Shown here in pieces: positions 20,677 through 61,918 of a stretch of 64,000 bases of DNA (positions are counted from its first letter, which is position 1; the number at the start of each line of letters is the position of its first letter). The DNA comes from Acidobacteriota bacterium (lineage in GTDB: Bacteria; Acidobacteriota; UBA890; WLXD01). The notes below the pieces were generated by a model. It did no database searches, was not told where the DNA came from, and worked only from the letters and a program-made list of their open reading frames with translations. The stretch covers positions 1,600,001-1,664,000 of the forward strand of contig CAXWPH010000015.1 of the NCBI GenBank assembly GCA_963666055.2, given 5' to 3'. Position numbers and translations under genes: made by a program.

Positions 20677-20759
20677 CCTTGGCATCGCCCTCGTCGCTCT
20701 TCCTTGATCTCGCCAGCAAGACCCACCCGCCAGACCCATCAGAGTTTTTCAGCACCCTG

Positions 20760-28685: not shown

Positions 28686-28833
28686 CTAGCGGGCAGTGTT
28701 GGAGGTGTGGCGGGCCTGGCGACAGGGTCTTGTGGGGCGGAGGCAGGGAGAAAAGGAGGAGGCGATGGCTACCCCATCCTTGACGACGAACGACGTGGCG
28801 TACGCCCGCAACACACCCACCACGGCCTGCTAG
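28686..28833. mobile_element. CTAG-bounded palindromic element (MITE-like), internally deleted copy of the 58950-59228 element
   Basis: Aligns by eye with the left half of 58950-59228 (GGGCCTGGCGACAGGGTCTTG...GGAGGCGATGG.TACCCCATC..GACGACGAACGACG) and ends in CACCACGGCCTGCTAG. Confidence 0.8.
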
Positions 28834-43575: not shown

Positions 43576-43618
43576 TCGACCGCGATTGCTCGGTCGGCGT
43601 CGGTCAGGAGGCTGCCCG

Positions 43619-44587
43619 GTGCGCAGTCAGCTCGCTGTTGCGTTGTTTCTGGTAGCGTGCGTAGGCACGTCGTGCGCCAACCTCCGGGTCGCTGAGCCAC
43701 CAACCGGCGGGCCGGGCGCCACGCGGCCCTCATTCGCGGCCCGCGAGCCTGTCCGCGTCGTCATCATGTGCGCCGTCCAGTCCGAGCTCGAAAAGTTGCT
43801 GGTGGCGTCGCGCATAGACGCCACCCGCGAGCTCGCTGGCCGGACGCACCACGTGGGCAACCTCGAGGGACACCCCGTGGTGCTGTTGCTTGCCGGCGTC
43901 AGCATGGTCAATGCGGCGGCCGCGACGCAGGCGGTCATCGATCACTTCGAGGTGGGAGCGATCATCTTCTCGGGTATCGCCGGCGGAGCGAACCCTGGCT
44001 TGAACATTGGCGATGTGACCGTTCCGGCACGCTGGGGCCAACATCAGGAGATGGTGTTCGCCCGCCATACGCCCGATGGCTGGGATACTGGCGGTCGCGC
44101 CAACGAGTTCACCAACTTTGGCATGATGTTCCCGCGCGGGCAGCTGCTGCCGGGGGCACAGATCGACTCACAACGTGGCGAGCGACGTTTCTGGTTCTCG
44201 GTTGACGAGCGCATGCTGGCGCACGCCCGCGAGCTTGCCGGAGAGTTTGTGCTGAAGCGCTGCGCCGGCTCCGGCGAGTGCCTCGACAAGACGCCGCGTC
44301 TGGTCGTCGGTGGCAACGGCGTGTCGGGGCCGACCTTCCTCGACAATACTGCCTTCCGCGAGTGGATCTGGGACACCTTCGAGGCCGACGCGGTGGATAT
44401 GGAGACGGCCGCCGTGGCTCAGGTGGCGGCACTCAACGGCACGCGATTTCTGGCCTTTCGCTCGCTATCAGACTTGGCCGGGGGCGCAGCGGGAGGTAAC
44501 CAGATTCGAACGTTCAGGCGCCTGGCGGCCGACAACTCTGCCACCGTCCTGCTGCGGTTCTTGCGCCGCTGGCGTGGTGTCGACTAG
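43619..44587 (+). CDS. 5'-methylthioadenosine/SAH nucleosidase (PNP_UDP_1 family), lipoprotein
   Basis: GVSMVNAA, FSGIAGG, GDVTVP, VDMETAAVAQVA, FRSLSDLAGG; AGGAGG RBS; lipobox GTSC. Confidence 0.87.
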   Translation: MRSQLAVALFLVACVGTSCANLRVAEPPTGGPGATRPSFAAREPVRVVIMCAVQSELEKLLVASRIDATRELAGRTHHVGNLEGHPVVLLLAGVSMVNAAAATQAVIDHFEVGAIIFSGIAGGANPGLNIGDVTVPARWGQHQEMVFARHTPDGWDTGGRANEFTNFGMMFPRGQLLPGAQIDSQRGERRFWFSVDERMLAHARELAGEFVLKRCAGSGECLDKTPRLVVGGNGVSGPTFLDNTAFREWIWDTFEADAVDMETAAVAQVAALNGTRFLAFRSLSDLAGGAAGGNQIRTFRRLAADNSATVLLRFLRRWRGVD

Positions 44588-44861
44588 TGGCCTGTAACAG
44601 ATGATCGTTGCAACTCGTGGTGGCGAAATGGGTGCGGATGCCAGGCGCGACGACGAGACGATGTTTGCCCATCGTGGAGGAGGAGCAACGCCGCAGACGG
44701 GCCGATTTCGCCGCCATCCTGCGGACAGATGGGCAGTTGCGGGCGATCTCGGCGTTGCGCCTCGTCGACGATGCCCACTGCATCGCCCTCCTCGCCGCGC
44801 CTTGATCTCACCCGTAAATCCCATCTGCCATATGCAACGATCATCTGTTACAGGCCACTGG
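44584..44861. mobile_element. 278-bp palindromic element (MITE-like) with ~29-bp terminal inverted repeats
   Basis: CTAGTGGCCTGTAACAGATGATCGTTGCA ... TGCAACGATCATCTGTTACAGGCCACTGG; two internal hairpin arms; no credible ORF. Confidence 0.85.
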
Positions 44862-44863
44862 TG

Positions 44864-46033
44864 ATGTCGTCGCCCATCGAGGTGGGCGTGCTGGCGCTCG
44901 CTGTTGCTACATGCCTGGCCTGGGCCGCCTTCGCGATCGATGTGCTCCGCGGACGCGGCACGATGAGCTTCGTGCGCGACATGCCGGTGCCCGACGCTGA
45001 GACGCTGGCTGCCCTGCCGCGCGTCAGCGTTATCGTGCCGGCGCGCAATGAGGTCGAGATGGTTGAGCCCGCCCTGCGCTCCGTACTGAATCTCGACTAC
45101 CCGGATCTGGAGGTCATCGCCGTTGATGATCGGTCTGACGACGGCACCGGCAGTGTGCTCGACGCGATGGCCGCTTCGGATTCGCGGCTGAAGGTGATCC
45201 ACATCACCGATCTGCCAGTGGGTTGGATCGGCAAGAACCACGCGTTGCAGCGCGGCGCGGAGATGGCGTCCGGTGAGCTGCTGCTGTTCACCGATGCCGA
45301 TGTCCTCTTCGAGCCCACCGTGCTGGTGCGCGCCGTCGGCCAACTCGTCGCGCACGGCTACGATCACCTGACCATGCCGGCCGATATCCGCGTTGCGAGC
45401 GCGCCCCTCGAGTTGTTCATGGCCACCTTCGCGCTGCTGTTCAACGGCTACTTCCGACCCTGGCGAGTCAGCGATCCGCGGAGCTCCGCGGCGGTGGGGT
45501 TCGGTAGCTTCAACCTGGTACGACGAGGGGCCTATGAGCATGCCGGAACACACGCGGCGTTGGCGATGGATCCGCTCGACGATATGCGGTTGGGAGTCAA
45601 CCTCAAAGCAAGCGGGGCAACGCCTCACTGCGCCGTCGCTGGTTCTTTTCTGCGCCTCGAGTGGTACCCGAGTTTGGCAGCGGCGTTCCGAGGGCTGGAG
45701 AAGAACACGCTGGGCGCGGTCAACTACTCGGTGCTGTTGCTCGCGGCTGGTGGCCTGGCGCAGACCGTCATGGTGGTGTGGCCGTTTGTCGCCATCTGGG
45801 TGACCGCCGGTGTGACGCGATGGTTGAACGTCACCGCGGTGGCAACGATCGTGGCGATCCAGATAGGCATGCTGAGAGAGACCAGCTTGCGGCTTTGGAC
45901 CGTTCCGTTGCTGCCGTTGGGGGTGCTTCTCGCGCAGGCATGTTTCGCCCGAGCTGCGGCGCTGGCGCTGTGGCGCGGCGGCATCTACTGGCGCGGCACG
46001 TTCTACCGGCTGGATGATCTGAAGGGTGCATGA
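44864..46033 (+). CDS. Family 2 glycosyltransferase, membrane-bound
   Basis: VSVIVPARNE, VDDRSDDGT, GWIGKNHAL, LLFTDAD, LDDMRLG; N- and C-terminal TMs. Confidence 0.9.
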   Translation: MSSPIEVGVLALAVATCLAWAAFAIDVLRGRGTMSFVRDMPVPDAETLAALPRVSVIVPARNEVEMVEPALRSVLNLDYPDLEVIAVDDRSDDGTGSVLDAMAASDSRLKVIHITDLPVGWIGKNHALQRGAEMASGELLLFTDADVLFEPTVLVRAVGQLVAHGYDHLTMPADIRVASAPLELFMATFALLFNGYFRPWRVSDPRSSAAVGFGSFNLVRRGAYEHAGTHAALAMDPLDDMRLGVNLKASGATPHCAVAGSFLRLEWYPSLAAAFRGLEKNTLGAVNYSVLLLAAGGLAQTVMVVWPFVAIWVTAGVTRWLNVTAVATIVAIQIGMLRETSLRLWTVPLLPLGVLLAQACFARAAALALWRGGIYWRGTFYRLDDLKGA

Positions 46034-46102
46034 ACGGCCCGGTCACCCTCTCGGGCGATCCTGGGCCGCGCTGGCTGTCGTAGCGACTGCGCTTGGCGGA
46101 GC

Positions 46103-48157
46103 TTACTCAGGCCCGTCGGCGTCGGCGTCAGCATCGGGCTTCAAACGCACCGCCCACAGACCGGAGTTGTTGTCGGCGAAGAAGATGTGCCCCTTGTGGG
46201 TCATCGTGCCCCAGGTACGGCGCGCGTTGGGCTTGAAGCCCTGTGGGTCGTCGGCCAGGAAATAGCCGATCTCACGTCCCTGCCGGTACAGGTCGCCGAG
46301 CAGCTCACCGGAAATGTCGACGACGCGCAGCCCGGCGTTGTAGTAGGCGATGTAGAGGGTGTCGCCGTCCACCCAGAAGTTGTGGGTGCCGCCGAACGGC
46401 ACCTGGTAGCGGGCCACCTCGCGCGGGTTCTCGAGATCGTCGAAGTCGATGAAGTGGATCCAGCCGGCGGCCTGCACCGGTGGCCCCTCGAAGCGATCCA
46501 GACCCATCGGGTTGCGCTCACGCGGGAAGGCCTCGTCGCCGGCGATGACGTAGAACTTGCCGCTCGAGCTCTTGAAAGGCCAGGCGGCGTGGTTCCAGCC
46601 GCTCGGATACGCGTACCGCGCCATTTCCACAGGGCTCACCGGAGAGCCCCCCATGCCGCCGCCACCGACGTCGACGAGGATCACCCCGTCGTCCCAGTTC
46701 GACGACACCGCAACTCCGTCGATCACCCAGACGTCGTGAATCGATCGGCCTGGCGAGTCGAGCTCGAACCGCCCGACACGATAGGGATTGCGCGGATCCT
46801 CGATGTTGAGGACGTCGTAACGGCGTCCGCCGGACAGGGCGTAGATGTGATCGTCGTGTATGTAGACGTTGTGCACCCCACCGGTCATCTGGTCGTCGTA
46901 CCGCGCTAGCACCTTGACCCCGTCGCGCGGGCTCGAAACGTCGAGGATCACCAGTCCGTTGCGGCGGTCCGAGGCGCCCTCGCGGCTGATCACCGCAATG
47001 CTCCCGTCCTCGGACACCTTGACGTCGTTGACGGTGCGGGCGTCGACCTTGACCATGTCGATGAGCTGAATGTTGCGTGGGTCGGTGACGTCCCAAACGT
47101 AGGCGTGCCCGGCGGCCCCCCACGTCCCGGTGATGGCATAGTCACCGCCGTCTGGGGCCTCCCAGACCCACAGGTCGGAGGTCTTACGATCGGCGACGCG
47201 CCCGTGTCCGACCAGCTCGATATCACGCCGTACGTTGCGCGGTGTCGCCACCACGGTCGTCGATGCCCAGTGCTGGCCGGCCGTCGCCAGGATTGTGTAC
47301 TCACCCGGGAGGTCGGCGACAAAACGCCCGTCAGCCGTAACCAGCCCGGAGGGCGGCTCCCCGAGACCGTGCTGATCGGTGCGGGCGCGGAACGCATACA
47401 CCACCGGCATTTCCGGCACCGGGTTGCCGTCGCCGCCGAGTGGCGTGGCCTCGAGGTGAACCACCTCGCCGGTGCGTACCTCGCTGGCGCTCGATGTCAT
47501 CCGCAGCGACGCCGTGGGATCGGCTGAGACGCGCACCTCGATGCTGTCGCGCACCTCCTCGGCACGCGCTGTGACCATTGCGGTGCCGCGGCCGACGAGC
47601 CGCATCGACCCGACGTGGTCGATCTCGACAACCGAGGTATCGCTGCTCTCGAGCACCGGCGAGATGTCGGTGCGGCTGGTGCCCGACACGTCAGCAGCTT
47701 CGAACTCGGGACGTACGGTGGTGCCGATGTAATAGCGCCCGGGCATGCTGGTGAAGGCGATGGAAGCGAGCGGCGGCACCGGCACGTGTACGGCGACAAC
47801 GGCGCGCAACGCGTCGTCGTCGCGGCGCGGGTCCACATCCGGCGAGCTGGGGACGATGGCCACTACTTCCACATCGCCCGGCTTGTACGCCTCGATCGTG
47901 CCAGCGGGGTTGACGCCGACGCGGCGCCGCGCTCGCGACACATAGACGATCTGTACGTCGTCCAATACGTTGCCGTCGCCGTCGCGCACCACCGCAGTGA
48001 CCTGAGCGGCGCTGCCGACCTCGATCGTGACCTGCTCGGGGTTGACCTCGATACTCGCCGGCGGTGGCGTTGCCTCTTGAGGGTCGGCTTGCATCGACGC
48101 GGTCAACGACAGCAGGGCAACGACCAACAATGGGGCAACACGTGCGGTGCGGTTCAT
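46103..48157 (-). CDS. Secreted Ig-like (Big_2) + LVIVD-repeat beta-propeller protein
   Basis: Signal peptide; SIEVNP..IEVG and LESSDTSVVEID Ig repeats; repeats VWDVTDP, LVILDVSSP, LRVVDISG, several with a His (VHN, IHD, NHA, THN). Confidence 0.75.
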   Translation of the reverse strand: MNRTARVAPLLVVALLSLTASMQADPQEATPPPASIEVNPEQVTIEVGSAAQVTAVVRDGDGNVLDDVQIVYVSRARRRVGVNPAGTIEAYKPGDVEVVAIVPSSPDVDPRRDDDALRAVVAVHVPVPPLASIAFTSMPGRYYIGTTVRPEFEAADVSGTSRTDISPVLESSDTSVVEIDHVGSMRLVGRGTAMVTARAEEVRDSIEVRVSADPTASLRMTSSASEVRTGEVVHLEATPLGGDGNPVPEMPVVYAFRARTDQHGLGEPPSGLVTADGRFVADLPGEYTILATAGQHWASTTVVATPRNVRRDIELVGHGRVADRKTSDLWVWEAPDGGDYAITGTWGAAGHAYVWDVTDPRNIQLIDMVKVDARTVNDVKVSEDGSIAVISREGASDRRNGLVILDVSSPRDGVKVLARYDDQMTGGVHNVYIHDDHIYALSGGRRYDVLNIEDPRNPYRVGRFELDSPGRSIHDVWVIDGVAVSSNWDDGVILVDVGGGGMGGSPVSPVEMARYAYPSGWNHAAWPFKSSSGKFYVIAGDEAFPRERNPMGLDRFEGPPVQAAGWIHFIDFDDLENPREVARYQVPFGGTHNFWVDGDTLYIAYYNAGLRVVDISGELLGDLYRQGREIGYFLADDPQGFKPNARRTWGTMTHKGHIFFADNNSGLWAVRLKPDADADADGPE

Positions 48158-48403
48158 TGCTCGATCCGGGTTGGGACGGAAGGGGGCAATCGATGCCTAG
48201 ACTCTGCCATGCGCGATCGCCAAAGTCGCGACCTGTCGGGATGTCGCCGGCGTGCCTGACGGCGGTCGTGTAAAGAAGCGTCAAGACCAGGAAAAGAACG
48301 TGCGAGGCAGCGTTTTTTGCGTTGTTCGGCGGTCGGTCGATCGCTACAGTGAATTGGACGCACGCGCGCCGCTCCAGGTCGCCGTCCGCCCCTGTCAGAG
48401 GCC

Positions 48404-50737
48404 GTGAAGATACTTGACGAACACGCTAGGCCGCGCCGCGATCTCCGCTTCTGCTTGGTGATACTCGCGAGTACGGCGCTGACGCTCTTGGTGATGTCTG
48501 CGCCAGCCTTGGCTGTGCCTCAGGATGGAGGCAGGCAGCAGCGTGACGAGGCAGCGCAGGAGCTTCTCGAGGCTCTCGAAGCTGCCACCGATCCGATCGC
48601 GGTCAAGTCGGCACGTGCGGCAACCCCCGAGGAAGAAGCCGAGATCGGGCAGGGCGGCAAGCGAATGGTGGCCACGGAAGCGCCGGTGGCCCCCCGCATC
48701 GACGGCTGGGTCGACGACGACGTGTGGGCGCTGGCCGAGGTGGTGACCGACTTCTTACAACGCGAGCCCGTAGAGGGCGGAGTTCCCACACAGCGCACCG
48801 AGGTGCGCATCCTGTTCGACGATAAAAACCTCTATATAGGCTTCGTGATGTACGACGACGAGCCCGGCCGCGTCGTCGCCTCCGACCTGCGCCGCGACAG
48901 TCGTCTGGAGACCGACGACAGCATCGCGGTGCTGCTCGACACGTTCCACGATCACCGTAACGGTTTTCTGTTCCGCGTCAATGCGCTCGGCACCAAATAC
49001 GACGCGACGGTACAGGGGGAGCGCAACGTTAACTCCCGCTGGGACGAGAGGTGGGAGGCTGCCGCCAGAATCACGCCGAATGGCTGGGAGGCGGAGATGC
49101 AGATCCCCTTCAAGGCGCTGAGGTTCGACGCCGGTGCGCATATCTGGGGCATCGATTTCAACCGCGAGATCCGTCGTACCAACGAAGAGGTCAACTGGAG
49201 CAACTACCGCCGCGGCTTCAACTTTCGTGACATCTCGCAGGGTGGTCACCTGCTCGGTCTGCGAAGCCTCGCGCTCACCGGTCGCTACCGGCTCAAGCCC
49301 TACGTGGCCGGTGCCTACACGGCGCTCAACGCGACCGATTCGCCGCTGACCGACGGTAGCGGCGACTTCGGCATCGAGGACTTCAAGGTCCAGATTACCC
49401 CCAACCTGACGGCAGACCTCACGGTCAATACCGATTTTGCCCAGGTTGAGGACGACGAGGAGCGTGTCAACCTGACGCGCTTCCCACTGTTCTTTCCCGA
49501 GCGCCGGGAGTTCTTCCTGGAAGGGTCCGACAAGTTCGATTTCGGTGGCGGCGGAGGGCGCGGCCGCGGCGGACCCAGCTCGCTGCTCTATCACTCGCGC
49601 AACATCGGATTGTTCGATGGAAGCCCGGTCACCATGCGGTACGGCGCCAAGCTGACCGGCAAGATAGGGAACACAAGCATTGGCTTTATCAACGCCCAGA
49701 CGGGCGACAGCGCCGAGCTCGACTACGTCGGGCGCAACCACACGACGCTGCGTTTGAAGCAGGACATCCTCGAGCGCTCCTCGATCGGCCTGATCTTGAC
49801 CAACGTCCAAGACGATGGGGCGCACAATCGCGTTGCTGGATTCGACGCCAGCTTCCGCTTCTTCGATCACATGAGCGTGCGCGGCAATATCGCCCAGGCG
49901 CGAGACTCCGAGGTCGGGCGCCCGCAATATGTCGGTGCCTTCGACGCCGGCTGGGACAGCGACCTGTGGAGCGCCCAAGCGAGCTACAGCTACGCCGATC
50001 CCGACTTCGTCACCGACATGGGCTTCATCCGGCGGCGCGACATGATACGGCAGAATTATCGTCTCGGCTGGAAGCCTCGACCCAGCTGGTCGTGGATGCG
50101 GCAGATGATGTTCTTTGGCGTGGTCGAGTACATCACCGATACCGCCGGTAACCCCGAGACCCGGGAGCACACGTTGTGGACACGCTATCAGCTGGAGTCG
50201 GGTGACTCGGCCAGCATCATGGTGCAGCGTTCCTTCGAACGAATTCGGGAGCCGTTCGAGGTATCAGATCAGGCGGAGATCAGCGTCGGCGACTACACCA
50301 ACAACGAGTGGAGAGCGTCGTTCGAGTCGTATCGGGCGCGGCGGCTCAGCGGCCGCGTCAACGTCAGCGGCGGCGGGTTCTTCGACGGCACCAGGCGTTC
50401 GTACGGCGGCAGCATGACGATGCGCTTCAACGAGAAGCTGTCGCTGTCGCCGCGCTACGACCTCAACCGCATCGAGCTACCGACTGACGCCTTCGACACC
50501 CACCTGGCGAGCATGCGAGCGTCGTACAACTTCAGCGATCGGTGGCTGACCAGCGCGCTGGTGCAGTACAACAGCATCGCCGACCGACTGTCGATCTTCG
50601 CGCGGCTGAACTTCATCCACCGGACCGGCGACGACCTGTTTCTGGTCTACAAGTCGACGGTGCGCTACGATCCGGAGTTCTACGGCCAGATGGACCAGGC
50701 CGTGATCGCCAAGATGACGCGGTCGTTCGACTTCTAG
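48404..50737 (+). CDS. CBM9-like + DUF5916 outer-membrane protein
   Basis: PRIDG..DD.W, LDTFHD.RNG, WEAEMQIPFKALRF, TVNTDFAQVE, LFFPERREFFLEG; beta-strand C-terminus ending in F. Confidence 0.82.
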   Translation: MKILDEHARPRRDLRFCLVILASTALTLLVMSAPALAVPQDGGRQQRDEAAQELLEALEAATDPIAVKSARAATPEEEAEIGQGGKRMVATEAPVAPRIDGWVDDDVWALAEVVTDFLQREPVEGGVPTQRTEVRILFDDKNLYIGFVMYDDEPGRVVASDLRRDSRLETDDSIAVLLDTFHDHRNGFLFRVNALGTKYDATVQGERNVNSRWDERWEAAARITPNGWEAEMQIPFKALRFDAGAHIWGIDFNREIRRTNEEVNWSNYRRGFNFRDISQGGHLLGLRSLALTGRYRLKPYVAGAYTALNATDSPLTDGSGDFGIEDFKVQITPNLTADLTVNTDFAQVEDDEERVNLTRFPLFFPERREFFLEGSDKFDFGGGGGRGRGGPSSLLYHSRNIGLFDGSPVTMRYGAKLTGKIGNTSIGFINAQTGDSAELDYVGRNHTTLRLKQDILERSSIGLILTNVQDDGAHNRVAGFDASFRFFDHMSVRGNIAQARDSEVGRPQYVGAFDAGWDSDLWSAQASYSYADPDFVTDMGFIRRRDMIRQNYRLGWKPRPSWSWMRQMMFFGVVEYITDTAGNPETREHTLWTRYQLESGDSASIMVQRSFERIREPFEVSDQAEISVGDYTNNEWRASFESYRARRLSGRVNVSGGGFFDGTRRSYGGSMTMRFNEKLSLSPRYDLNRIELPTDAFDTHLASMRASYNFSDRWLTSALVQYNSIADRLSIFARLNFIHRTGDDLFLVYKSTVRYDPEFYGQMDQAVIAKMTRSFDF

Positions 50738-50780
50738 GACACTAACCGCTACCCGACCCCCCACTCGCGAGCCTGCTCAC

Positions 50781-52409
50781 TTGTCTCGAAACCCGCTCGC
50801 TCTGCGCGTCCTCCTTGCTTGTGTCCTGCCCTTGGCGGTGGTGCGCTGTGCCTCGAGGCCGGCGCCCGTATTGACGCCGGTGCCGCTCGGCGACGGCCCC
50901 TCGCTGGTGGTGGTAATCGCCATCGACCAGGCGCGCTACGACTATCTGGTGCGCTTCCGGTCGTTCTTCACGGGCGGGCTCGCGCACTTGCTCGACAACG
51001 GTGCGGTGTTCACCAACGCACATCAGAACCATTCGATGACGGCGACGGCGCCAGGGCATGCGACGATCGCTACAGGACTCGAGCCGGCGCACTCGGGCAT
51101 CGTCGGCAACAACTGGTACGACCGACAACGGAACGTAGAAGTTTACTCGGGCGGGCCGGCGGCACAGCGGTCGCCTTTGCTGCTGCAGGGGACGGCGATC
51201 GGCGACTGGATGAAAGCGGCTGATCCGCGCTCGAAGGTATTCACTGCCAGCCTCAAGGACCGCTCGGCGATCATGCTGGGTGGTCAGGGCGCCGACGGGG
51301 TCTTCTGGTACGACGGTCGCTATGGCTCTTGGACGAGCAGCAGCTACTACGGGGGGGCGCTTCCTGATTGGCTCGTCGACTTCAACCGAGAGCGACGGCT
51401 CGACCGCTTCTACGGTACCGCCTGGGAGCCGCTGACCGACGAGCCCCGCTGGGCCGAGGTAGATGTCGAGCATCTCGACACCGGGGCTTTTGCGCGCCGC
51501 TTCCCGCACGTGCTCGGTTGGTCGAACCCCGAGCCGAGCTCAGTGTTCTACGAGCGGATTCCGAACAGTCCGTGGGGCGACTGGTACCTGGCTGAGATGG
51601 CCGAAGCCTTGATCGTCAACGAGGATCTCGGGGCCGATGGCAGCGTCGACCTCCTTGGTCTGGCGTTCTCCTCGCTCGACTACGTTGGGCACACGTATGG
51701 GCCCAACGCCCCGGAGGTTCTCGACGTGCTGGTGCGACTGGATCAGCGCCTCGGCGAGCTGCTGGAGTTCATTGACGAGCGTATTGGCCTCGACCACGTG
51801 TTGTTGGCGTTGAGCGCCGATCACGGTGTTCAGGTAATGCCCGAGTACCTGGCGTCTCGTGGGTTGGAGGGCCAGCGGCTGAACGGTGAGGATCTGCTCT
51901 GCGTCCAGCAGGCGGGCGAGCGGCTCCGCGAGAAACTCGGCGACCAGGAATGGATCGAGTGGACCTACTACCTCGACGAATCGGTGATCGCGCGGCAGCA
52001 GCTCGACAAGGCGGATGTGGAGGCGGAGCTCGCCGCAATTCTCAGCGCCTGTGCCGCGGTCGAGCGCGTTTGGACCTCGGCCGAGTTGATGGACGATCGC
52101 CCTACCGCCGATCTGCAGACGCAGCGATACCGAAACAACTACTTCGCGGGTCGGAGTCCTGACCTGGTCGTCCAGTACCACGACTACTTTCTGGACGATC
52201 AATCGATGGGCACCACTCACGGAACGGTGTTCGATTATGACTCCCACGTACCGATGATCGTGGCCGGGCCGGGCGTTGTCGCTGGCGAGCACGACGAGCG
52301 CGCCGCGACAGCAGATCTCGCCCCGACACTGGCGGCCCTGCTCGGCATCGAGCCCCCTGCCGGCCTGGACGGCCGCGACCTCAGCGCCCAGCTGCGCACG
52401 GGGCACTAG
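50781..52409 (+). CDS. Alkaline phosphatase family protein (PafA / type I phosphodiesterase-like)
   Basis: IAIDQAR, TAPGHATIATG (Thr nucleophile), SLKDR, DYVGHTYGP, SADHG, THG..YDSHVP. Confidence 0.9.
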   Translation: MSRNPLALRVLLACVLPLAVVRCASRPAPVLTPVPLGDGPSLVVVIAIDQARYDYLVRFRSFFTGGLAHLLDNGAVFTNAHQNHSMTATAPGHATIATGLEPAHSGIVGNNWYDRQRNVEVYSGGPAAQRSPLLLQGTAIGDWMKAADPRSKVFTASLKDRSAIMLGGQGADGVFWYDGRYGSWTSSSYYGGALPDWLVDFNRERRLDRFYGTAWEPLTDEPRWAEVDVEHLDTGAFARRFPHVLGWSNPEPSSVFYERIPNSPWGDWYLAEMAEALIVNEDLGADGSVDLLGLAFSSLDYVGHTYGPNAPEVLDVLVRLDQRLGELLEFIDERIGLDHVLLALSADHGVQVMPEYLASRGLEGQRLNGEDLLCVQQAGERLREKLGDQEWIEWTYYLDESVIARQQLDKADVEAELAAILSACAAVERVWTSAELMDDRPTADLQTQRYRNNYFAGRSPDLVVQYHDYFLDDQSMGTTHGTVFDYDSHVPMIVAGPGVVAGEHDERAATADLAPTLAALLGIEPPAGLDGRDLSAQLRTGH

Positions 52410-52446
52410 GCCGTAGTGGAAGTGTGGCGAGCCGGCCAGCCGGCTA
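52406..52446. repeat. Remnant left end of the CTAG-bounded element
   Basis: CTAGGCCGTAGTGGAAGTGTGGCG matches the left terminus CTAGCAGGCCGTGGTGGAAGTGTGACG at 58950; lies between two convergent TAG stops. Confidence 0.7.
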
Positions 52447-52722
52447 CTCGTTGCTCCAGGAGGTGCGAGTTGGAAGCGACTGAGTGCAGTTGATGCGCTC
52501 GGTCATGCCGGTCGCCAACGTCGAGCAAGCCATCTCGGCGGCGGTGCGGATCGCTTCCTCGTGCGTCATGCCCGAGGCGACGCGACACTCGGTACGGCCC
52601 TTGAACGTGAAACAGATCTCGCCCGTGACCTGTGCGAGGCCGATGCTCGAATAGACGATCAGCGCCAGCAGGCCGGCGACGAGCACTCCGACCGCGACGA
52701 ACAAGCCCCTGCGACTGCCCAT
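52444..52722 (-). CDS. Small membrane-anchored hypothetical protein with 4 Cys
   Basis: 92 aa, N-terminal TM, ICFTF..EC..AC..INC; fills the gap between flanking genes. Confidence 0.65.
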   Translation of the reverse strand: MGSRRGLFVAVGVLVAGLLALIVYSSIGLAQVTGEICFTFKGRTECRVASGMTHEEAIRTAAEMACSTLATGMTERINCTQSLPTRTSWSNE

Positions 52723-52813
52723 TGCCCGATGATACAGTCAACTCGCTCCCAGCAACGGCTGGTGTCTTCGGTGCGAATGGTAGCCGACGTCTCCGGCGAC
52801 CACGGATGACCCG

Positions 52814-54253
52814 ATGCGCAAGACTCTTACAGTGCTGCTGCTGTTGGCCACCCTCCCCGCCACGATTGCCGCGCGTCTGCTGCCGGCGGAAGACGATACC
52901 TGGGGGAGGTTTCGTGGCCCGAACGGCTCGGGCGTAGTAGAGACCAGTGCACTGCCGACGAGGTTCGGCCCCGACACCAACGTCATCTGGAAGACCGAGC
53001 TGGCGCCGGGCCACTCGTCGCCGATTCTCTCGGCGCGTCGGATCTTCTTGACCGCGACTGACGGCGATCGCTTGCTGACCATGGCGCTCGATCGCGAGAG
53101 CGGTGAGGTTTTGTGGCAGCGCGAGGCCCCTCGGCCAAGAGCCGACTTCTTCGACAATCGTAACAACGCGGCCTCGCCGAGCCCCGCGGTGAGCGATGGG
53201 GCCATCTTCGTGTTCTTTCCCGACTTCGGCATGCTGTCGTACACATTCGAGGGCGAGGAGCGCTGGAGCGTGCCGCTCGGGCCGTTCAACAACATCTATG
53301 GAATGGGCGCATCGCCGGTTGTCGTCGACGACAAGGTGATCCTCGTGTGCGACCAGAACGTCGGATCGTTCATGCTCGCGGTGCACAAGGATACCGGCGA
53401 GATCCTCTGGAAGGTCGAGCGGCCCGAGGCCAAGAGCGGGCACTCCACGCCGGTGCTGTGGGAGTCGCCGGAGGGCAAAACGCAACTGATCTTGCCAGGC
53501 TCCTTCTTGCTCGACTCCTACGATCCGGACACCGGCGAGAAGATCTGGTGGGTGCGTGGCCTCTCGTTCGAGATAAAGTCGACGCCGGTGATCCTGGACG
53601 ACGTCGCGTACATCAACGGGTACGGAGCGCCGATCAACCAGCCCGGGAATCAGGTCTTCCTGCCTTCTTTCGCCGAGGTCGTATCGCAGCGCGACGCCGA
53701 TGGCGACGGCGTCATCAAGGCCGATGAGATGCCTCGGAACCGCGCTCGAACTTGGTTCTATCTCGCCGATCTGGACGTCAACGATACGCTCGATGCGGAC
53801 GAATGGGCCTACCTGCGGGCAGCGCTGGAGAGCCGCAACGGCATGTTGGCGATTCGTCTGGGTGGCAGTGGTGATATGACCGACGAGAACTTGATCTGGG
53901 AGTACAACCGCTCCGTCCCGCAGTTGCCATCGCCCCTCATCTACAACAACGTCCTGTACATGGTGAACGACGGCGGCATCGTCACGTCGTTCGATCCGCA
54001 GACCGGCGAAGTGATCGCACAAGGACGTCTCAAGGGCGCGGTAGACCAGTACTACGCGTCGCCGATCGCCGCCGACGGCAAGGTCTTCATGCTGTCGGAG
54101 CTCGGCATGCTCTCGGTGCTCGAGCCGGACGGCGGCCTCGAGCCGATCACCGTGTCGGATCTCGACGACCTCTGCTACGCCACCCCAGCGATCGCCGACG
54201 GTCGAATCTACGTGCGCACCCGCGGCACGCTCTACGCGTTCGGGTTGAGCTGA
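52814..54253 (+). CDS. PQQ-binding-like beta-propeller protein with EF-hand insert
   Basis: WGRFRGPNGSG, NVIWK, GHSSP, GASPV, YASPI, YATPAI; EF-hand loops DADGDGVIKADE and DLDVNDTLDADE. Confidence 0.85.
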   Translation: MRKTLTVLLLLATLPATIAARLLPAEDDTWGRFRGPNGSGVVETSALPTRFGPDTNVIWKTELAPGHSSPILSARRIFLTATDGDRLLTMALDRESGEVLWQREAPRPRADFFDNRNNAASPSPAVSDGAIFVFFPDFGMLSYTFEGEERWSVPLGPFNNIYGMGASPVVVDDKVILVCDQNVGSFMLAVHKDTGEILWKVERPEAKSGHSTPVLWESPEGKTQLILPGSFLLDSYDPDTGEKIWWVRGLSFEIKSTPVILDDVAYINGYGAPINQPGNQVFLPSFAEVVSQRDADGDGVIKADEMPRNRARTWFYLADLDVNDTLDADEWAYLRAALESRNGMLAIRLGGSGDMTDENLIWEYNRSVPQLPSPLIYNNVLYMVNDGGIVTSFDPQTGEVIAQGRLKGAVDQYYASPIAADGKVFMLSELGMLSVLEPDGGLEPITVSDLDDLCYATPAIADGRIYVRTRGTLYAFGLS

Positions 54254-54304
54254 AGTTCCAGCTCGACCGTGTGGCTGTTGTTAGAGTCGGTGGTCTCGTA
54301 GCGG

Positions 54305-54329
54305 ATCGCCAGCGGCCGTCGCTGGCGAT
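54305..54329. terminator. Hairpin between convergent genes, possible terminator
   Basis: ATCGCCAGCG-GCCGT-CGCTGGCGAT perfect 10-bp stem; no U-tract. Confidence 0.4.
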
Positions 54330-54378
54330 GAAGCGCTCTCGCGATCCGGCCTGCTAGGCAGCTTGACGGACCGGCTTC

Positions 54379-54705
54379 TTAATCGGCCCGCAAGGCTACT
54401 ACCGGGTCGACCGCTGAGGCACGAATCGCCGGGAGCCAGCTCGCCACCAGGGCGACCAACCCGAGCATCGCCGCCACGCCCGCGTAGGTAGCCGGGTCGG
54501 TGGTGTCGACCTCGTACAGCAGTGAGGTCAACACGCTGCTGGCCGCGATGGCCGCCACCAGGCCGACGGCAATCCCCACGATGGCAAGAACGAGACCCCG
54601 ACGGACGACCATGGCCTGGACGCTTCGGCGCGAGGCTCCCAGCGCAATGCGCACGCCGATCTCCTGCGTGCGCTCGCTGACGACGTACGAGATCACGCCG
54701 TAGAT
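54379..54705 (-). pseudogene. C-terminal fragment of an FtsX/ADOP-type ABC permease
   Basis: IYGVISYVVSERTQEIGVRIALGA...SWLPAIRASAVDPVVALRAD; everything upstream of IYG is replaced by unrelated AT-richer DNA. Confidence 0.85.
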
Positions 54706-54734
54706 GGTGGGTGCTCCTGAATGTTCTGCAATAC

Positions 54735-54778
54735 GGCTATATAGGATCCTAGGTTTCAATCTAGGATCCTATATAGCC
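54735..54778. repeat. Perfect 18-bp inverted repeat with 8-bp spacer
   Basis: GGCTATATAGGATCCTAG-GTTTCAAT-CTAGGATCCTATATAGCC. Confidence 0.95.
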
Positions 54779-54867
54779 ATTTCATAGCAGCCCGCTAGCC
54801 GAGGTGGCGCGGCTCCGGCTCGTCGGAGCGGAACCCCGCGGATGAAATCGCGCCTGCCTCGAGCTCC

Positions 54868-55911
54868 CTACGCCACCTCTCGGAGTATCGCCCCGGAGGC
54901 GAACCCGGCGCCGAAGGCGACGTCGATCTCGATCCCAAGCCGCGATGCGCCGTTAGCTCGCGCGTTGGGATCGAGGTACCCAAGCGGGATCGACGCAGTC
55001 GACGTGTTGCCGAAATGCACGATCCCGTTCGTGTACACCCGCTCGAGCGGCATCCCGAGCTTGCTGGCAACGCTTTCGATAATGCGTAGGTTTGCCTGGT
55101 GCGGATAGACGAAGCTGACGTCGTCGAGGCTGACCGGGTCGGGATTGTCACGATTGTACTTCTCGACCACGGTGTGGATGTCGTTGACCATGGTGCGCAC
55201 CGCCACGCCGTACACCTTGCGGCCGCTCATGTGCAGATAGGGACGGACACCGGTCTGCTTGTTGGAGAACGGCTCGGGCGAATCCGCGGTCCACTGCGTT
55301 TCAAGTACCGGGTCGGAGTACAGGTAGTCGCCGTAGCGTCCGTCGGCGTGGGTGTGAATCGCCAGGATTCCGCCGCGATCCACCTGGCGCAGAACCACGG
55401 CGCCGGCCCCGTCGCCCAGCAAGACGCAGGTTCCGCGGTCCGTCCAGTCGGTAATGTGCGACAGGCCGTCCACACCGATCACCAACGAGATCAACTCATC
55501 GCCGTCGCGCACCTTCGAAACCCAGATCTTGTTGTACGCTTCCTCGACCGCATATATGAAGCCGGCACAGCCGGCAGATACGTCGGCGGCCGATGCGTTG
55601 AAGGCGCCGATTGCCGCCTGCACCTGGGTGGCCAGACTCGGGAAGCGCGCCCAGGTGTTTACCCCGACGCGGATGTCGCCAACCTGCTCTGGCGTGACCC
55701 CGGCGTCGTCAAGCGCCTGCCGGGCGGCGGCCACCGCCATGTCGAGGATGGTCTCGTCCGCTGCCAGGATGCGGCGCTCACGAATGCCCGTGCGCCGCTG
55801 GATCCACTCGTCGGTGGTGTCGATGATTCGTTCGAGGTCGTTGTTGGTAAGGACTGTGGAAGGCACGTAGGCACCGAAGCCCACGTAGCCGATGGAAAGA
55901 TCCGGCTTCAT
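54868..55911 (-). CDS. fabH: 3-oxoacyl-ACP synthase III
   Basis: DTTDEWIQRRTGIRERR, SAGCAGF, GDGAGAVV, PHQANLRII, GNTSTASIP (Cys-His-Asn triad). Confidence 0.92.
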   Translation of the reverse strand: MKPDLSIGYVGFGAYVPSTVLTNNDLERIIDTTDEWIQRRTGIRERRILAADETILDMAVAAARQALDDAGVTPEQVGDIRVGVNTWARFPSLATQVQAAIGAFNASAADVSAGCAGFIYAVEEAYNKIWVSKVRDGDELISLVIGVDGLSHITDWTDRGTCVLLGDGAGAVVLRQVDRGGILAIHTHADGRYGDYLYSDPVLETQWTADSPEPFSNKQTGVRPYLHMSGRKVYGVAVRTMVNDIHTVVEKYNRDNPDPVSLDDVSFVYPHQANLRIIESVASKLGMPLERVYTNGIVHFGNTSTASIPLGYLDPNARANGASRLGIEIDVAFGAGFASGAILREVA

Positions 55912-56051
55912 GTCGGGCCTGTACCGGGGCGCACGAGTCGCCCTCGGTTGGTTTACCGCGCGGAATGAGAGCATGGCGCGGATGATGGAGGGGTCGGAAA
56001 GTAAGAAGTATGTACTGGAGGTTCCTACCCTTTGCGCCTGGCTGTCAATAG

Positions 56052-57101
56052 CTAGCGCACACCGGTCTCAAACTCGACGGCGAGCTTCACGTCTTCCTCC
56101 GACCCCATGTAAAGGGGTACCCGCTCGTGCAGCTCGGTAGATTGCACATCGAGGATGCGCTCGGTCCCGGTTGAAGCCATACCGCCGGCCCGCTCGATGA
56201 TCATTCCCATGGGGTTGGCCTCGTACATCAGACGCAGCTTGCCGCCCGGAGCGTTGTGCGTAGCCGGGTACATGAAGAGTCCGCCATAGAGCAGCGTACG
56301 GTGCACGTCGGCGACCATCGAGCCGATGTAGCGTCCCGAGTACGGTCGCCCCGTCGACGCGTCGTCCTCCTGGAGATAGTCCAAGAATCGACGAGTGCTT
56401 TCGAAGAAGATGTTCCGATAGCCCTCGTTGGTGCTGTAGATGCTGCCCTTCTTGGGGATCTCGATATTCGGATGCGAGAGCAGAAACTCGCCGATGCTCG
56501 GGTCCAGCGTAAAGCCGCTGACGCCGTCGCCGGTGGTGTAGACCAACATGGTGCTCGAACCGTAGAGGATGTACCCGGCTGCCACCTGCTCGGATCCCTT
56601 GCGCAGTAGATCCACCAGGCTGCCATGTCCCGGCTCGGTAAGCCGACGGTAGATCGACCAGATCGAGCCGATCGATACGTTGGCGTCGATGTTCGATGAC
56701 CCGTCCAACGGATCGAACAGCAGCACGTAATCACCGGTGGCGAATTTGTCTGGAATGGCGATCGGCTCGTCGGCTTCCTCCGAGCCCATCAAACACAGCA
56801 TGCCACCGTGATCGAAGTTCTTGATAAAGCACTCGTTGGCGAACTCATCGAGCTTCTGCACCCTCTCGCCTTGGACGTTCGTTGTCCCGGTCTCGCCGAC
56901 GATGTCTACCAGGCCCGCCTTGTTGACCTCGCGGGCGATGAGCTTGCCGGTGAGCGCGATGTCGTAGAGCAGTCGCGTCAAGGTGCCGGTGGCGTCGGGA
57001 TGCTGTGTCTGGCGATCGAGAACGTGGCGCTCGATCGTGACGATTTGGTTGGGCCGCGTGACGATCGGCGTCTTCACTGCTGCGGCCGGGCGGCTGGGCA
57101 T
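56052..57101 (-). CDS. fbp: Fructose-1,6-bisphosphatase class 1
   Basis: [48 protein letters not shown]. Confidence 0.96.
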
Positions 57102-57256
57102 GAGGTTCCTCCGAGCGTCTGCTGACGCGGGACACTCTACGCTGCGGATACGTGGTCAGCCTAATTCTCGCCTGCCGACGGCTGAAATCAAGCGCGGCGG
57201 CCCGTCTCATCTCTTGCAGGACAGTTGGGCATGCCCCTGCAGGAGCCCTGATACCG

Positions 57257-57622
57257 ATGGTGAGCTCGTTCGTCGTTGCCCGTCGCCGCATCGCGCAGTG
57301 CCGTATTTGTCTGGAGCGAGATGCCAGCTTGGGGATCATCCCGGCAGCGGCGCAAGCGGACGTCGACCGGTGCTACCTGGCGGTGGCGACCATCCTCGAC
57401 GATGCACGAGGCGAGATCGAGGCGGCAGGACCCCGCTTGGATCGGGATGGGATGTTCCGCGAGGAATTCATCGGTGGATGCCTGGTATTGGCCCAGTGCA
57501 TGTTCCGCGCCATGTACAGAGAGGCCTGCCCGCTGGCGTTGCGCCGGGTTGCAGGCTGCCTGTGCGCCCAGGCGCGCGGTCTGAAGGGGTACCTCTGGGC
57601 GCGCCTGGAGCGTGTCGCGTAA
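57257..57622 (+). CDS. Cys-rich hypothetical protein
   Basis: 121-aa ORF with host-like codon usage and CAGGAG upstream; no recognised family. Confidence 0.45.
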   Translation: MVSSFVVARRRIAQCRICLERDASLGIIPAAAQADVDRCYLAVATILDDARGEIEAAGPRLDRDGMFREEFIGGCLVLAQCMFRAMYREACPLALRRVAGCLCAQARGLKGYLWARLERVA

Positions 57623-58604
57623 GGCCGAGCGACCTCATCTCGGGAGGCAATCGATCGGTCGAACCGGCATACTGGGCGCCATGTTCGCAGCCGCAGATAT
57701 CCGCACCCCCAGGGCGCATCGCCGATCGCGTACTGGCGGCCTGGTGCTGGTGATCGGTGCCTGTGCCCTGGGCTGCACGAGCGCGCCAGACAGCGGCGAT
57801 GGGCCGCCGCCCGGCAGCGTAGATTTGCCGGTGGCCGCCGTCAGCGCCCCGCCGGCGGTGCTCGTCGAATCCGATCCCGCGGCGAGCCACCAGACCGGCC
57901 GCGCACCTCGCATCCAGACCTACGAGGTGGTGCGCAGCTATCCACACGATCCGGAAGCGTTTACTCAGGGGCTCGTATTTCACCGTGGCCATCTCTATGA
58001 GGGCACCGGGCGCCGCGGCGAATCGTCGCTTCGAAAGGTCGAGCTGGAGACCGGTCGGGTGCTCGAATCCGCCGACTTACCACCGATGTTCTTCGGTGAA
58101 GGGATCGCTATCCTCGGCCAGCGCGTCTATCAGCTCACCTGGCAGTCCGGCACAGGTTTCGTCTACGACCTCGAGAGCTTCACTGTCGTGGCGCAGTTTC
58201 GGCAGTTCACCGAGGGGTGGGGGCTGACCCACGACGGCAAACAGCTCATCCTGAGTGACGGGAGCTCGCGGATCTACTTCCTCGATCCCGGATCGGTCGC
58301 TCCAGTGCGGCAGATCGAGGTGCGCGATCAGGGGCGCCCAGTAGACTTGATCAACGAGCTCGAGTACATAGACGGCGAGATTTACGCCAACGTCTGGCAT
58401 AGCAACGACATCCTGCGGATCTCTCCTCGCACCGGCGAGGTGCTCGCACGGATCGACATGTCGGGCATTATTGACGCAGAGCTAATTGGCGATCCCGAGG
58501 CGGTGCTCAACGGCATCGCCTACGATGCGGCGAGCCGACGGACGTTCGTCACCGGCAAGCTCTGGCCGCGACTCTTCGAGGTGCGGTTCATCAGCCAGCG
58601 CTGA
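57612..58604 (+). CDS. Glutaminyl-peptide cyclotransferase, lipoprotein
   Basis: PHDPEAFTQGL, FGEGI, EGWGLT, SDGS, INELEYIDG.IYANVW, VLNGIAYD, TGKLWP; lipobox ALGC; start uncertain. Confidence 0.92.
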   Translation: MSRKAERPHLGRQSIGRTGILGAMFAAADIRTPRAHRRSRTGGLVLVIGACALGCTSAPDSGDGPPPGSVDLPVAAVSAPPAVLVESDPAASHQTGRAPRIQTYEVVRSYPHDPEAFTQGLVFHRGHLYEGTGRRGESSLRKVELETGRVLESADLPPMFFGEGIAILGQRVYQLTWQSGTGFVYDLESFTVVAQFRQFTEGWGLTHDGKQLILSDGSSRIYFLDPGSVAPVRQIEVRDQGRPVDLINELEYIDGEIYANVWHSNDILRISPRTGEVLARIDMSGIIDAELIGDPEAVLNGIAYDAASRRTFVTGKLWPRLFEVRFISQR

Positions 58605-58661
58605 CCTCCGGGTGACGCCGGCTGAAACCAGTGGTGCTCGCCCGCATCGGGCGTTCGCAGC

Positions 58662-58913
58662 TCAGATCGAGCCCTCGGTCTTGGCGAACGAGGAGTCCTT
58701 GTCGCCGCCAAACCGATACCCGCCGCTGAAACCGATCTTCTTGTGCTCGATCGCAATCACCTGCGAGCTGTTGAGCACCACGGTCGCTTGCTCACCCTCG
58801 ATCGAGGCGGCCTTGCGTGGCAGTAGCTCGACGAACCTGCCATCGCACAGGAAGCGCGCATCGTCCGCCTCGATGACGGTGTCGTCGGTGAGCTCGATCT
58901 CATAGCGCGCCAT
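58662..58913 (-). CDS. Small hypothetical protein
   Basis: 83 aa with strong GC3 bias; TAAAAT hexamer 8 nt before the ATG. Confidence 0.6.
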   Translation of the reverse strand: MARYEIELTDDTVIEADDARFLCDGRFVELLPRKAASIEGEQATVVLNSSQVIAIEHKKIGFSGGYRFGGDKDSSFAKTEGSI

Positions 58914-58949
58914 GGGTCAAGATTTTACCAGGCGGTCACAAGGGCGGAG

Positions 58950-59228
58950 CTAGCAGGCCGTGGTGGAAGTGTGACGGGCCTGGCGACAGGGTCTTGCGAG
59001 GTGGAGGCAAGGAGAGAGAAGGAGGCGATGGTTACCCCATCGTCGACGACGAACGACGCAGTATACGCGCGCAACCCCCTGTCGCCCAAAGGGTTACGGC
59101 GATTCGGGGCCATCTGCAGCGTTGGCCTTCCTCGACGATGGCTAGGGCATCGCCAGTGTCAGGCCGCCTTGCATCTGGCCCCAACTCGCCGCAACCAGGC
59201 CCGCCACACTTTCACCACGGCCTGCTAG
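58950..59228. mobile_element. 279-bp palindromic element (MITE-like) with ~34-bp terminal inverted repeats
   Basis: CTAGCAGGCCGTGGTGGAAGTGTGACGGGCCTGG ... CCAGGCCCGCCACACTTTCACCACGGCCTGCTAG; two internal hairpin arms. Confidence 0.88.
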
Positions 59229-59371
59229 CGCAGGTTGCCTGGTGTCCTCGGCGCGCGACGAACGACCACTACGGCGAGCTCGCGCCGTAGCTCGACCGCC
59301 GTCCGGATGACCGTCCAGCCCGACCAGAGCGCCAGCGCAGCGAGCGACAGAGGGATGATTTGATCCAGCAT
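59225..59371 (-). CDS. 48-aa single-TM peptide
   Basis: MLDQIIPLSLAALALWSGWTVIRTAVELRRELAVVVVRRAPRTPGNLR; AAAGGA RBS 7 nt upstream. Confidence 0.5.
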   Translation of the reverse strand: MLDQIIPLSLAALALWSGWTVIRTAVELRRELAVVVVRRAPRTPGNLR

Positions 59372-59388
59372 CTGCAAGTCCTTTGAGT

Positions 59389-60484: not shown

Positions 60485-61886
60485 CACCGAGCTGGCGGCG
60501 GCGTTGCGACGCCTGCGCCAGGTCGCGGAGGCAATGAACGAGCAGGTCGCCGATGGCCCGGTTTCCAAGTCGCGCACCGTGGCCGACGTACGCGCCCGGA
60601 TCGATGGTCTCTTCGATCTTGCCGAACCGACCTCACCCGACGAGCTAGTCGAACGGGTTGTCGAGCGGTTGGCGGCCGACACCGTGCAGGTCACTCACCC
60701 GCGCTACTTCGGGCTCTTCAACCCCGCTGTTCCGCCGATCACGGTGGTCGCGGATGCCCTGGTGGCGATGTTCAACCCACAGCTTGCTGCATGGGAGCAT
60801 TCGCCTGCGGCTCAGGAGATGGAGCGCCTGGTGCTCGGCGCGCTGGGACGGCTTGTCGGCCTGGAGCTCGACGGCGGCATGGCCCACTTCACCAGCGGTG
60901 GCGCCGAGGCCAACGGTACCGCGACGCTGGCGGCGCTGGTGGCGGCGTTCCCGGCTCTGCCTGCGACCGGACTGCGAGCGCTGCCGGCGCAACCAACGCT
61001 CTATCTTTCCGGGCAAGGTCACGACACCTTCTTGAAGATCGCCGTTGCCTGTGGGCTGGGCCGGAAGGCGGTGCGGCGTGTCCCGGTTGACGACGACTTC
61101 CGCATGGACGTGGCGGCGTTGCGCGATCAGCTGCGCCGAGACCGAGCCCGCGGTGAGCAGCCGTTTCTGGTGGTCGGGACCGCCGGCACGACATCGACGG
61201 GAGTGATCGACCCGCTCGAGTCGATCGCCGAGGTGGCGAGCGAAGAGCGTCTCTGGATGCACGCCGACGCCGCCTGGGGCGGTGGTGCGCTCCTGTCGGA
61301 GCGCCTCCGACCGGCGCTTGCCGGCATCGACGCGGCTGATTCGATCACCTGGGACGCGCACAAGTGGCTATCGGTGCCGATGGCCGCCGGTATGTTCTTC
61401 AGCCGCCGTCCCGCCGCCGTACGCGCCGCGTTCGACGTCCACGCGACGTATGTGCCGCCCAGTCCCGAAGGCGCTGACGATCCCTATACGGTGTCGTGGC
61501 AGTGGAGCCGTCGGTTCATCGGCCTGAAGGTGTTCATGGCTCTGGCCGAGGTCGGGCTGCAGGGCTACGGGGAGCGCGTCGAGCATCAGGCGGATATGGG
61601 CGATCGCTTGCGACGACGATTGCGGGAATCCGGCTGGTTGCTGTGCAACCGTACTCCGCTGCCACTGGTGTGCTTCAGCCATCCGCAGATCGAATCCGGC
61701 CACACCACCGCGCCCGAGGTGGTGGCGCGGGTCATCGCCTCGGGGCAGGCTTGGGCCTCGACGATTCGCCTGCCCACCGGCGCGGAGGTCATTCGCGCCT
61801 GCGTCTGCAACTATCGCACCAGCCCCGAAGATATCGATGCCACCGTGCGTGCGTTCGACAGCGCGCTACCGATGACCGATGGCTAG
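60477..61886 (+). CDS. Group II PLP-dependent decarboxylase (aromatic amino acid / diaminobutyrate type)
   Basis: HPRYFG, FTSGGAEAN, GTAGTTSTG.IDPL, HADAAWGG, DSITWDAHKW, QWSRR. Confidence 0.9.
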   Translation: MPDTELAAALRRLRQVAEAMNEQVADGPVSKSRTVADVRARIDGLFDLAEPTSPDELVERVVERLAADTVQVTHPRYFGLFNPAVPPITVVADALVAMFNPQLAAWEHSPAAQEMERLVLGALGRLVGLELDGGMAHFTSGGAEANGTATLAALVAAFPALPATGLRALPAQPTLYLSGQGHDTFLKIAVACGLGRKAVRRVPVDDDFRMDVAALRDQLRRDRARGEQPFLVVGTAGTTSTGVIDPLESIAEVASEERLWMHADAAWGGGALLSERLRPALAGIDAADSITWDAHKWLSVPMAAGMFFSRRPAAVRAAFDVHATYVPPSPEGADDPYTVSWQWSRRFIGLKVFMALAEVGLQGYGERVEHQADMGDRLRRRLRESGWLLCNRTPLPLVCFSHPQIESGHTTAPEVVARVIASGQAWASTIRLPTGAEVIRACVCNYRTSPEDIDATVRAFDSALPMTDG

Positions 61887-61918
61887 CGGCAGGCCGCACT
61901 TCCACCACGGCCTGCTAG
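61883..61918. repeat. 36-bp minimal derivative of the CTAG-bounded element
   Basis: CTAGCGGCAGGCCGCACTTCCACCACGGCCTGCTAG; each terminal CTAG holds the stop codon of a convergent gene. Confidence 0.8.

Follow-up and report, generated by a model that had tools for sequence, protein, structure and literature searches.

Two CTAG-bounded miniature elements of an Acidobacteriota genome share a folded arm and carry ends resembling those of two unrelated insertion sequence families

Among described bacterial repeats, the closest counterparts of the elements considered here are RUP and bcr1. RUP of Streptococcus pneumoniae, associated with IS630-Spn1, is non-coding, 107 bp long and present in ~100 copies; it has IS630-like termini and a TA-centred target, and was assigned to its insertion sequence (IS) by end similarity. 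It is linked to a single transposase family, and a core in common with elements of other ISs is not described in the part of that source devoted to it (PMC2229807). bcr1 of the Bacillus cereus group is a mobile repeat with two cruciform-like stem-loops kept by compensatory changes; it is ~155 bp long, has 5-bp direct repeats, is transcribed and occurs in Bacillus only, and the part of its account that bears on its structure reports no IS630 or IS1182-like ends (PMC3184786; the comparison is between descriptions, not sequences). We analyzed a stretch of 64,000 nucleotides from an Acidobacteriota bacterium (assembly GCA_963666055.2, contig CAXWPH010000015.1, positions 1,600,001 to 1,664,000; hereafter the window), which holds a pair of transposable elements of the miniature inverted-repeat type (MITEs), at 44584..44861 (element 1, family B, 278 bp) and 58950..59228 (element 2, family A, 279 bp), neither assigned a strand as a whole. 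Their ends resemble different ISs, and their interiors are built from the same arm of ~105 nt. A full-text literature search, with ISfinder, subscription papers and supplements outside its scope, found no description of this core. The MITE is a known kind of element; its conserved cargo, common to different IS families, appears to be undescribed.

The original prediction, made from the window alone, placed both elements at these coordinates and described them as having one two-armed fold and different terminal inverted repeats, but not a shared sequence. Coordinates and lengths agree with the sequence, and so do the quoted stems at the arm bases, the four CGATG-N6/7-CATCG tips, the inverted arms and the recurring motifs. 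The terminal repeats do differ (30 nt at 97% and 35 nt at 94%). Element 1 consists of a left terminal repeat (44584..44612, +), arm A (44614..44718, +), a central 3-bp mini-hairpin with a TCC/GGA stem and a GNA triloop (44717..44725, -; assigned from the sequence and a survey of families), arm B (44724..44831, -) and a right terminal repeat (44833..44861, -). Element 2 has the same order: left repeat (58950..58983, +), arm A (58980..59086, +), mini-hairpin with a CCC/GGG stem (59085..59093, +; its loop is AAA here and GAA in most of the family), arm B (59092..59198, -, with CTAG within its tip) and right repeat (59195..59228, -). Each arm forms a purine-rich fold on its own strand and is recognized by our covariance model (81.6 and 93.6 bits for arms A and B of element 1; 83.5 and 104.5 bits for those of element 2). 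The claim that the elements do not share their sequence turned out to be too strong: in a global alignment of one to the reverse complement of the other, they are identical in 201 of 305 columns (66%; score 26 against -98 for the best of 200 shuffles), and blastn aligns the two at 69.5% identity over 105 nt. Judged by their sequences, the two elements are homologous and lie in opposite orientation. Both are unusually stable when folded (z-scores -10.2 and -8.6; 0 of 200 shuffles as stable). The two-armed shape is the minimum free energy (MFE) structure of element 2, whereas the whole + strand of element 1 has as its MFE a rod made by pairing between arms A and B, and the two-arm fold therefore needed comparative support. 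The basis for the intra-arm fold is covariation and not energy alone.

The proposal of a non-autonomous mobile element is borne out by copy number, empty sites and target duplication. Counting the window copies, near-full copies number 9 for element 1 and 89 for element 2 in this genome (95.7% complete), besides many truncated ends; among relatives, matches occur in 20 of 41 genomes for element 1 and in 23 of 41 for element 2. The predicted CTAG boundary is present at three of the four ends in the window, the right end of element 1 reading CTGG; genome-wide, CTAG stands at the start of 9/9 family-B and 77/89 family-A copies and at the end of 7/9 and 83/89, respectively. The site of element 2 is empty in one relative (G002), with a single CTAG there, and that of element 1 is empty in another (G001), where it reads CTAA, the stop of the upstream gene. 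The target is duplicated, and duplications of 2 bp (TA) and 4 bp (CTAG) look alike in sequence. Elsewhere in the genome, 8 of the 89 family-A copies are nested in the CTAG of the element's own arm-B tip. All intact copies are bounded at the termini and not at the arm. Contigs from four sequencing runs show a ~100-fold or greater excess of depth over element 2, with loose ends piling up at 58950 and 59228; no empty allele was found among them. The elements are thus short and non-coding, with terminal inverted repeats; their copies are dispersed and have fixed ends, their targets are duplicated, and orthologous sites without them exist. These are the features by which bacterial MITEs are recognized, and we are highly confident that both are MITEs moved by DDE transposases. 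The two families also meet physically: in G002 (L280, G002:C8:1284640-1285160) a family-A-type element is nested in the arm-B tip of a family-B element.

No transposase had been noticed in the window, and none was found among its 17 scanned open reading frames (ORFs); genome-wide searches with the DDE_3, DUF772, DDE_Tnp_1 and Y1_Tnp profiles gave zero matches inside it. An autonomous IS with the same ends, which the original prediction proposed to look for, was found in a related genome, G011. This IS of 1505 bp (four loci fetched) has termini identical to the right end of element 2 at 21 of 21 positions and matching the first 21 nt of its left end at 20; its 472-aa protein is closest to the IS1182 profile (E 2.5e-46, 158.6 bits, below the IS1182 cut-off of 270), and the same genome also carries family-A MITEs. 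The end of element 1 matches IS630 ends at 22/30 positions (IS630 of the relative G007) and 19/30 (the single resident IS630, on contig C6), and a sister family of element 1 reaches 24/30. Sequence similarity thus points to two unrelated IS families as the source of the ends, IS1182-like for element 2 and IS630 for element 1. Recognition of the elements by shape, as originally suggested, is not supported for the transposase because the ends match ordinary IS termini by sequence; the shape belongs to the internal cargo common to both elements. IS1182/IS5-family and IS630-family ISs (NF033551, NF033581, NF033545) have the terminal sequences and CTAG target in common with the MITEs, whereas the arm is absent from all 11 IS loci searched. 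Therefore, the core is not a deletion remnant of those ISs. Two candidates for an autonomous partner within this genome were rejected: a long end-to-end pair on contig C4 encloses a 769-aa ORF that by eye is not transposase-like, and the resident IS5 has different ends. The latter is a single-copy IS5-type transposase (C2:402,460-403,525) with ends unrelated to both elements. Two loci (L170, L262) have the same two-arm core with ends like those of this resident IS5, a third end type, and L147, L184 and L212 carry other end types.

The core is widely distributed. Our model matches 38 of 121 genomes sampled from the phylum, and a pattern scan of GTDB found at least 117 loci. By record title, the matches listed include Acidobacteriota, Planctomycetota, Myxococcota, Desulfobacterota, Spirochaetota, Bdellovibrionota, Verrucomicrobiota, Omnitrophota, Methylomirabilota, Pseudomonadota and Gemmatimonadota, about 11 phyla in total, with lower taxon names in the titles mapped to phyla. 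In viral contigs a strict pattern had 0 matches; a loose pattern had 11, but by eye these did not resemble the hairpin. A blastn search of the plasmid database PLSDB found nothing for element 2; for element 1 it gave 88 Ralstonia matches of 48 nt, of which the one inspected lacks the element and is likely due to chance. To compare cores with ends, we built a tree of 31 cores (7 of 38 rows, being near-copies or having mis-cut or misclassified ends, were left out), with end types set by the first bases rather than by locating the partner IS. The cores are not sorted by end type: the tree needs four changes for each main end type, and the approximately unbiased (AU) test rejects a single clade of IS630-ended cores (p 0.009), although support is weak. 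MITE copies or remnants that share a CTAG with an IS630 end were observed at L069, L071, L073 and L075 of G007 and at C6:346,365 of this genome; such abutting of a MITE and an IS630 at a common CTAG is a plausible route to end swapping. G007, a genome of 5.1 Mb, shows a large IS burst: transposases of the DUF772 type are matched at least 150 times there, and those of the IS630 type 43 times.

In the core, selection acts on the structure. The covariation across copies that the original prediction asked for is present. In an alignment of 40 non-redundant arms, 91% of the cells are paired compared with 70% after shuffling, a figure favored by the structure having been drawn from the same sequences. 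Compensatory, both-side changes occur in 26 of 36 pairs, and the covariation score is 0.51 (0.16 for shuffled alignments, at most 0.13 for slid controls). The pattern extends beyond Watson-Crick pairs. Tandem G·A pairs are found in 37-39 of the 40 arms, the lone pair between them flips (C-G in 27/40, G-C in 10/40), and one non-canonical position is either C·A (24/40) or A·G (16/40). G·T cells exceed A·C cells 85 to 22; therefore, the purine-rich strand is the folding strand. The GTDB scan left both the non-canonical and the lone-pair positions free. The 80 loci listed, which include kin, repeats from one genome and one locus seemingly already in the alignment, have CA 60, AG 19, AA 1 and C-G 0 times at the former and CG 62, GC 16 and GG 2 times at the latter; 79 of the 80 are matched by the covariance model. 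Non-canonical covariation together with strand asymmetry supports the suggested selection on a folded single strand, and we consider such selection on the arm to be very likely. It might be argued that the core is a neutral palindrome without function, whose symmetry is maintained by hairpin repair or gene conversion and which is passed on through end capture. The copies indeed vary at paired terminal positions in a linked way, as conversion would give. Nevertheless, the symmetry that conversion produces is of the Watson-Crick kind, and G·A tandems, a swap between C·A and A·G without C-G intermediates, constant spacing or motifs conserved across phyla could not be maintained by it. We regard this explanation as very improbable, and the non-canonical pairs, the listed GTDB loci and the spacing largely refute it.

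The selection seems to act on the spread of the element. Singleton mutations in the 89 family-A copies are as frequent in the motif (0.39 per column) as elsewhere (0.44, p 0.59), which, within the limited power of the comparison, fits selection at the level of the element and not of each locus. The other possibility raised originally, a stand-alone family of structured non-coding RNAs, is not supported because the copies lie scattered as insertions and their private mutations show no depletion within the motif. Neither element has a match at the gathering threshold in Rfam 15; below it, we found matches to microRNA precursors, rejected as generic long hairpins.

The arm also keeps its distance from the end of the element. 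The core motif starts at 44641 in element 1, 57 nt from the end, and at 59008 in element 2, 58 nt from the end; more generally, a YTAR end lies 55-60 nt before the motif at 52 of 77 loci, compared with 23 of 400 random sites. Sizes are similarly regular. The 40 loci with both ends found divide into 20 one-arm elements of 163-174 bp and 20 elements of 242-344 bp, and 38 distinct two-arm elements measure 271-290 bp; typical sizes are ~167 bp for one arm and ~279 bp for two. Since different phyla have the arm in common and the ends vary, the arm itself could be the mobile unit, recognized by its shape by a putative single-strand enzyme (HUH or tyrosine recombinase), with IS-like ends as bystanders. 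Two known systems come to mind. REP sequences and REPINs, associated with RAYTs, are likewise dispersed intergenic palindromes, but are 20-40 bp long with a tetranucleotide foot (PMC3116915, PMC3733652). The RAYT/HUH gene that the original prediction proposed to look for was not found in this 95.7% complete genome as far as Y1 HUH genes go (PF01797, 0 matches; Y2 HUH, integron integrase and reverse transcriptase were not searched). Integron attC sites work in a similar way: they fold strand-specifically as single strands with purine-rich unpaired parts, show a G·T bias and the same purine-strand preference, and conserve structure over sequence. They differ in being recombined by IntI, flanking gene cassettes and having a GTTRRRY core (PMC5027507), whereas the elements here have DDE-type ends and a duplicated target. 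These ends identical to those of a real IS, the target duplication typical of DDE enzymes and the bounding of intact copies at the termini make a self-mobile arm improbable. Arm variants with ~9-10 extra base pairs, about one helical turn, were seen at C14:532,900-583,200 of this genome (L368, L370-L372), L193:2162-2288 and L232:491-613. The extra pairs lie between the lower loop motif and the tip, giving a core of 70-73 nt as opposed to 51-55 nt. Two of those on C14 speak for a self-mobile arm: one is 105 bp long, bounded by CTAG and lacking an IS-like end, and another is repeated in a short tandem array (period ~114 bp). Within this genome such variants were found solely in that part of C14, possibly an island or a stretch joined from foreign DNA.

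We favor, with a probability of roughly 0.5, the following explanation: gene-less CTAG insertions are moved in trans by DDE transposases, and the shared ~105-nt arm acts as single-stranded DNA that raises copying success. The IS1182-like transposase would likely move element 2, and the IS630 transposase element 1. The arm, selected to fold on one strand, would likely act as folded single-stranded DNA. The element may fold back, as a cruciform or an exposed single strand, so that pairing of the two termini gives an end-to-end stem in advance, and a putative protein, probably a host factor rather than either transposase, would bind the internal loops rich in G·A, which lie at a constant distance from where the element is cut. 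With two arms, each strand would have a working arm at its 5' end. The ends would now and then be replaced by those of an active CTAG/TA-targeting IS while the core is kept. Mobility, the origin of the ends, selection on the fold and the spacing are directly seen or strongly supported, whereas we infer in which molecule the arm acts, what binds it and what benefit it brings. More tentatively, the arm could be a transposase-independent 'booster', a structure of single-stranded DNA that a conserved host protein would read at a set distance from the end, so that unrelated DDE transposases could move a tiny element efficiently; it would have spread by end swaps through at least 11 phyla as a shape-defined superfamily.

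Several observations weigh against the favored explanation, and some of them bear on its main competitor, in which the MITEs are equally DDE-moved but RNA is the working form of the arm. Transcribed from a promoter inside the element or by read-through, it would form a rod with sheared G·A pairs to which protein binds, and would thereby protect the transcript or render insertions tolerable. The binder is putative, and transposition of the elements is deduced from comparison of sequences. The IS1182-like protein of G011 lies under its family cut-off (158.6 against 270), and tblastn with this transposase found no relative in the present assembly. The core tree is poorly resolved, and its starred branches force one change only. 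The sequences behind the pairing counts are related, so the counts overstate independent events, and variants shared between copies are weakly depleted in the motif (p 0.09). RNA energy rules applied to the purine strands recover the covarying fold as the MFE structure, and the exchange of C·A for A·G is isosteric in RNA; DNA folding parameters fail to recover the G·A stems and so carry no information here. The one-arm copies are unbiased relative to the GC-skew strand (31:35 and 15:19 in two single-contig genomes, skew being taken from 20 samples of 20 kb each); therefore, they lend no support to a model of hairpins on the lagging strand. In this genome family A does have a bias, 58:31 relative to skew and 64:35 toward genes pointing in, one that can be assigned to neither replication nor transcription. 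An RNA role would agree with its orientation to flanking genes, and also with the location of 50 of the 89 family-A copies at stop codons (ORFs being crudely called). Action or folding as RNA is described for ERIC and bcr1 (PMC2229807, PMC3184786). On the other hand, one-arm copies lack orientation to flanking genes, their purine strand being the read-through strand in 6 vs 9 and 8 vs 10 cases (crude ORF calls); the fixed distance to a DNA end has no obvious RNA reason; and the private mutations spare the motif no more than the rest. In 18 of 23 families a GNA triloop caps the central mini-hairpin, and the TCC/GGA variant keeps the triloop register and breaks the UNCG register, which favors DNA, in which GNA triloops are stable; the three TCC/GGA cases are kin, and amount to about one event. 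On balance, we give DNA a slight edge over RNA as the molecule in which the arm acts, and consider the RNA explanation as a whole unlikely, albeit the strongest of the rivals.

Both elements are flanked by ordinary chromosomal genes. The phosphorylase-family gene upstream of element 1 (43586-44587) has its TAG stop within the element's left CTAG, and the ATG of a GT2 glycosyltransferase ORF follows its right end at 44864. A short hydrophobic ORF (59225-59372, -) stops at the right CTAG of element 2, and has the same stop at the empty site of G002. Further copies in the window are incomplete. A truncated family-C copy (20630..20763, -; 79.7 bits) has the same arm and a different IS5/IS1182-type end (22/30 match to another end of that type), which holds the stop of a GMC oxidoreductase gene. 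An internally deleted family-A copy of 148 bp has arm A only (28686..28833, +; 39.5 bits), and a 36-bp family-A remnant lies between two CTAGs at the stop of a pyridoxal decarboxylase gene (61883..61918, no strand assigned). A weak resemblance of 39 nt to arm A at 14722-14760, without a model match, is probably fortuitous or left from a very old copy.

What lies between the ends of a MITE is usually regarded as filler that the element could do without. In the present case it is this interior that is conserved, both across phyla and between two unrelated transposase families, and it bears a structural signature explained by a folded single strand alone. This implies an unrecognized step or host factor in the spread of short elements, and makes testable why some MITEs far outnumber their parent ISs.

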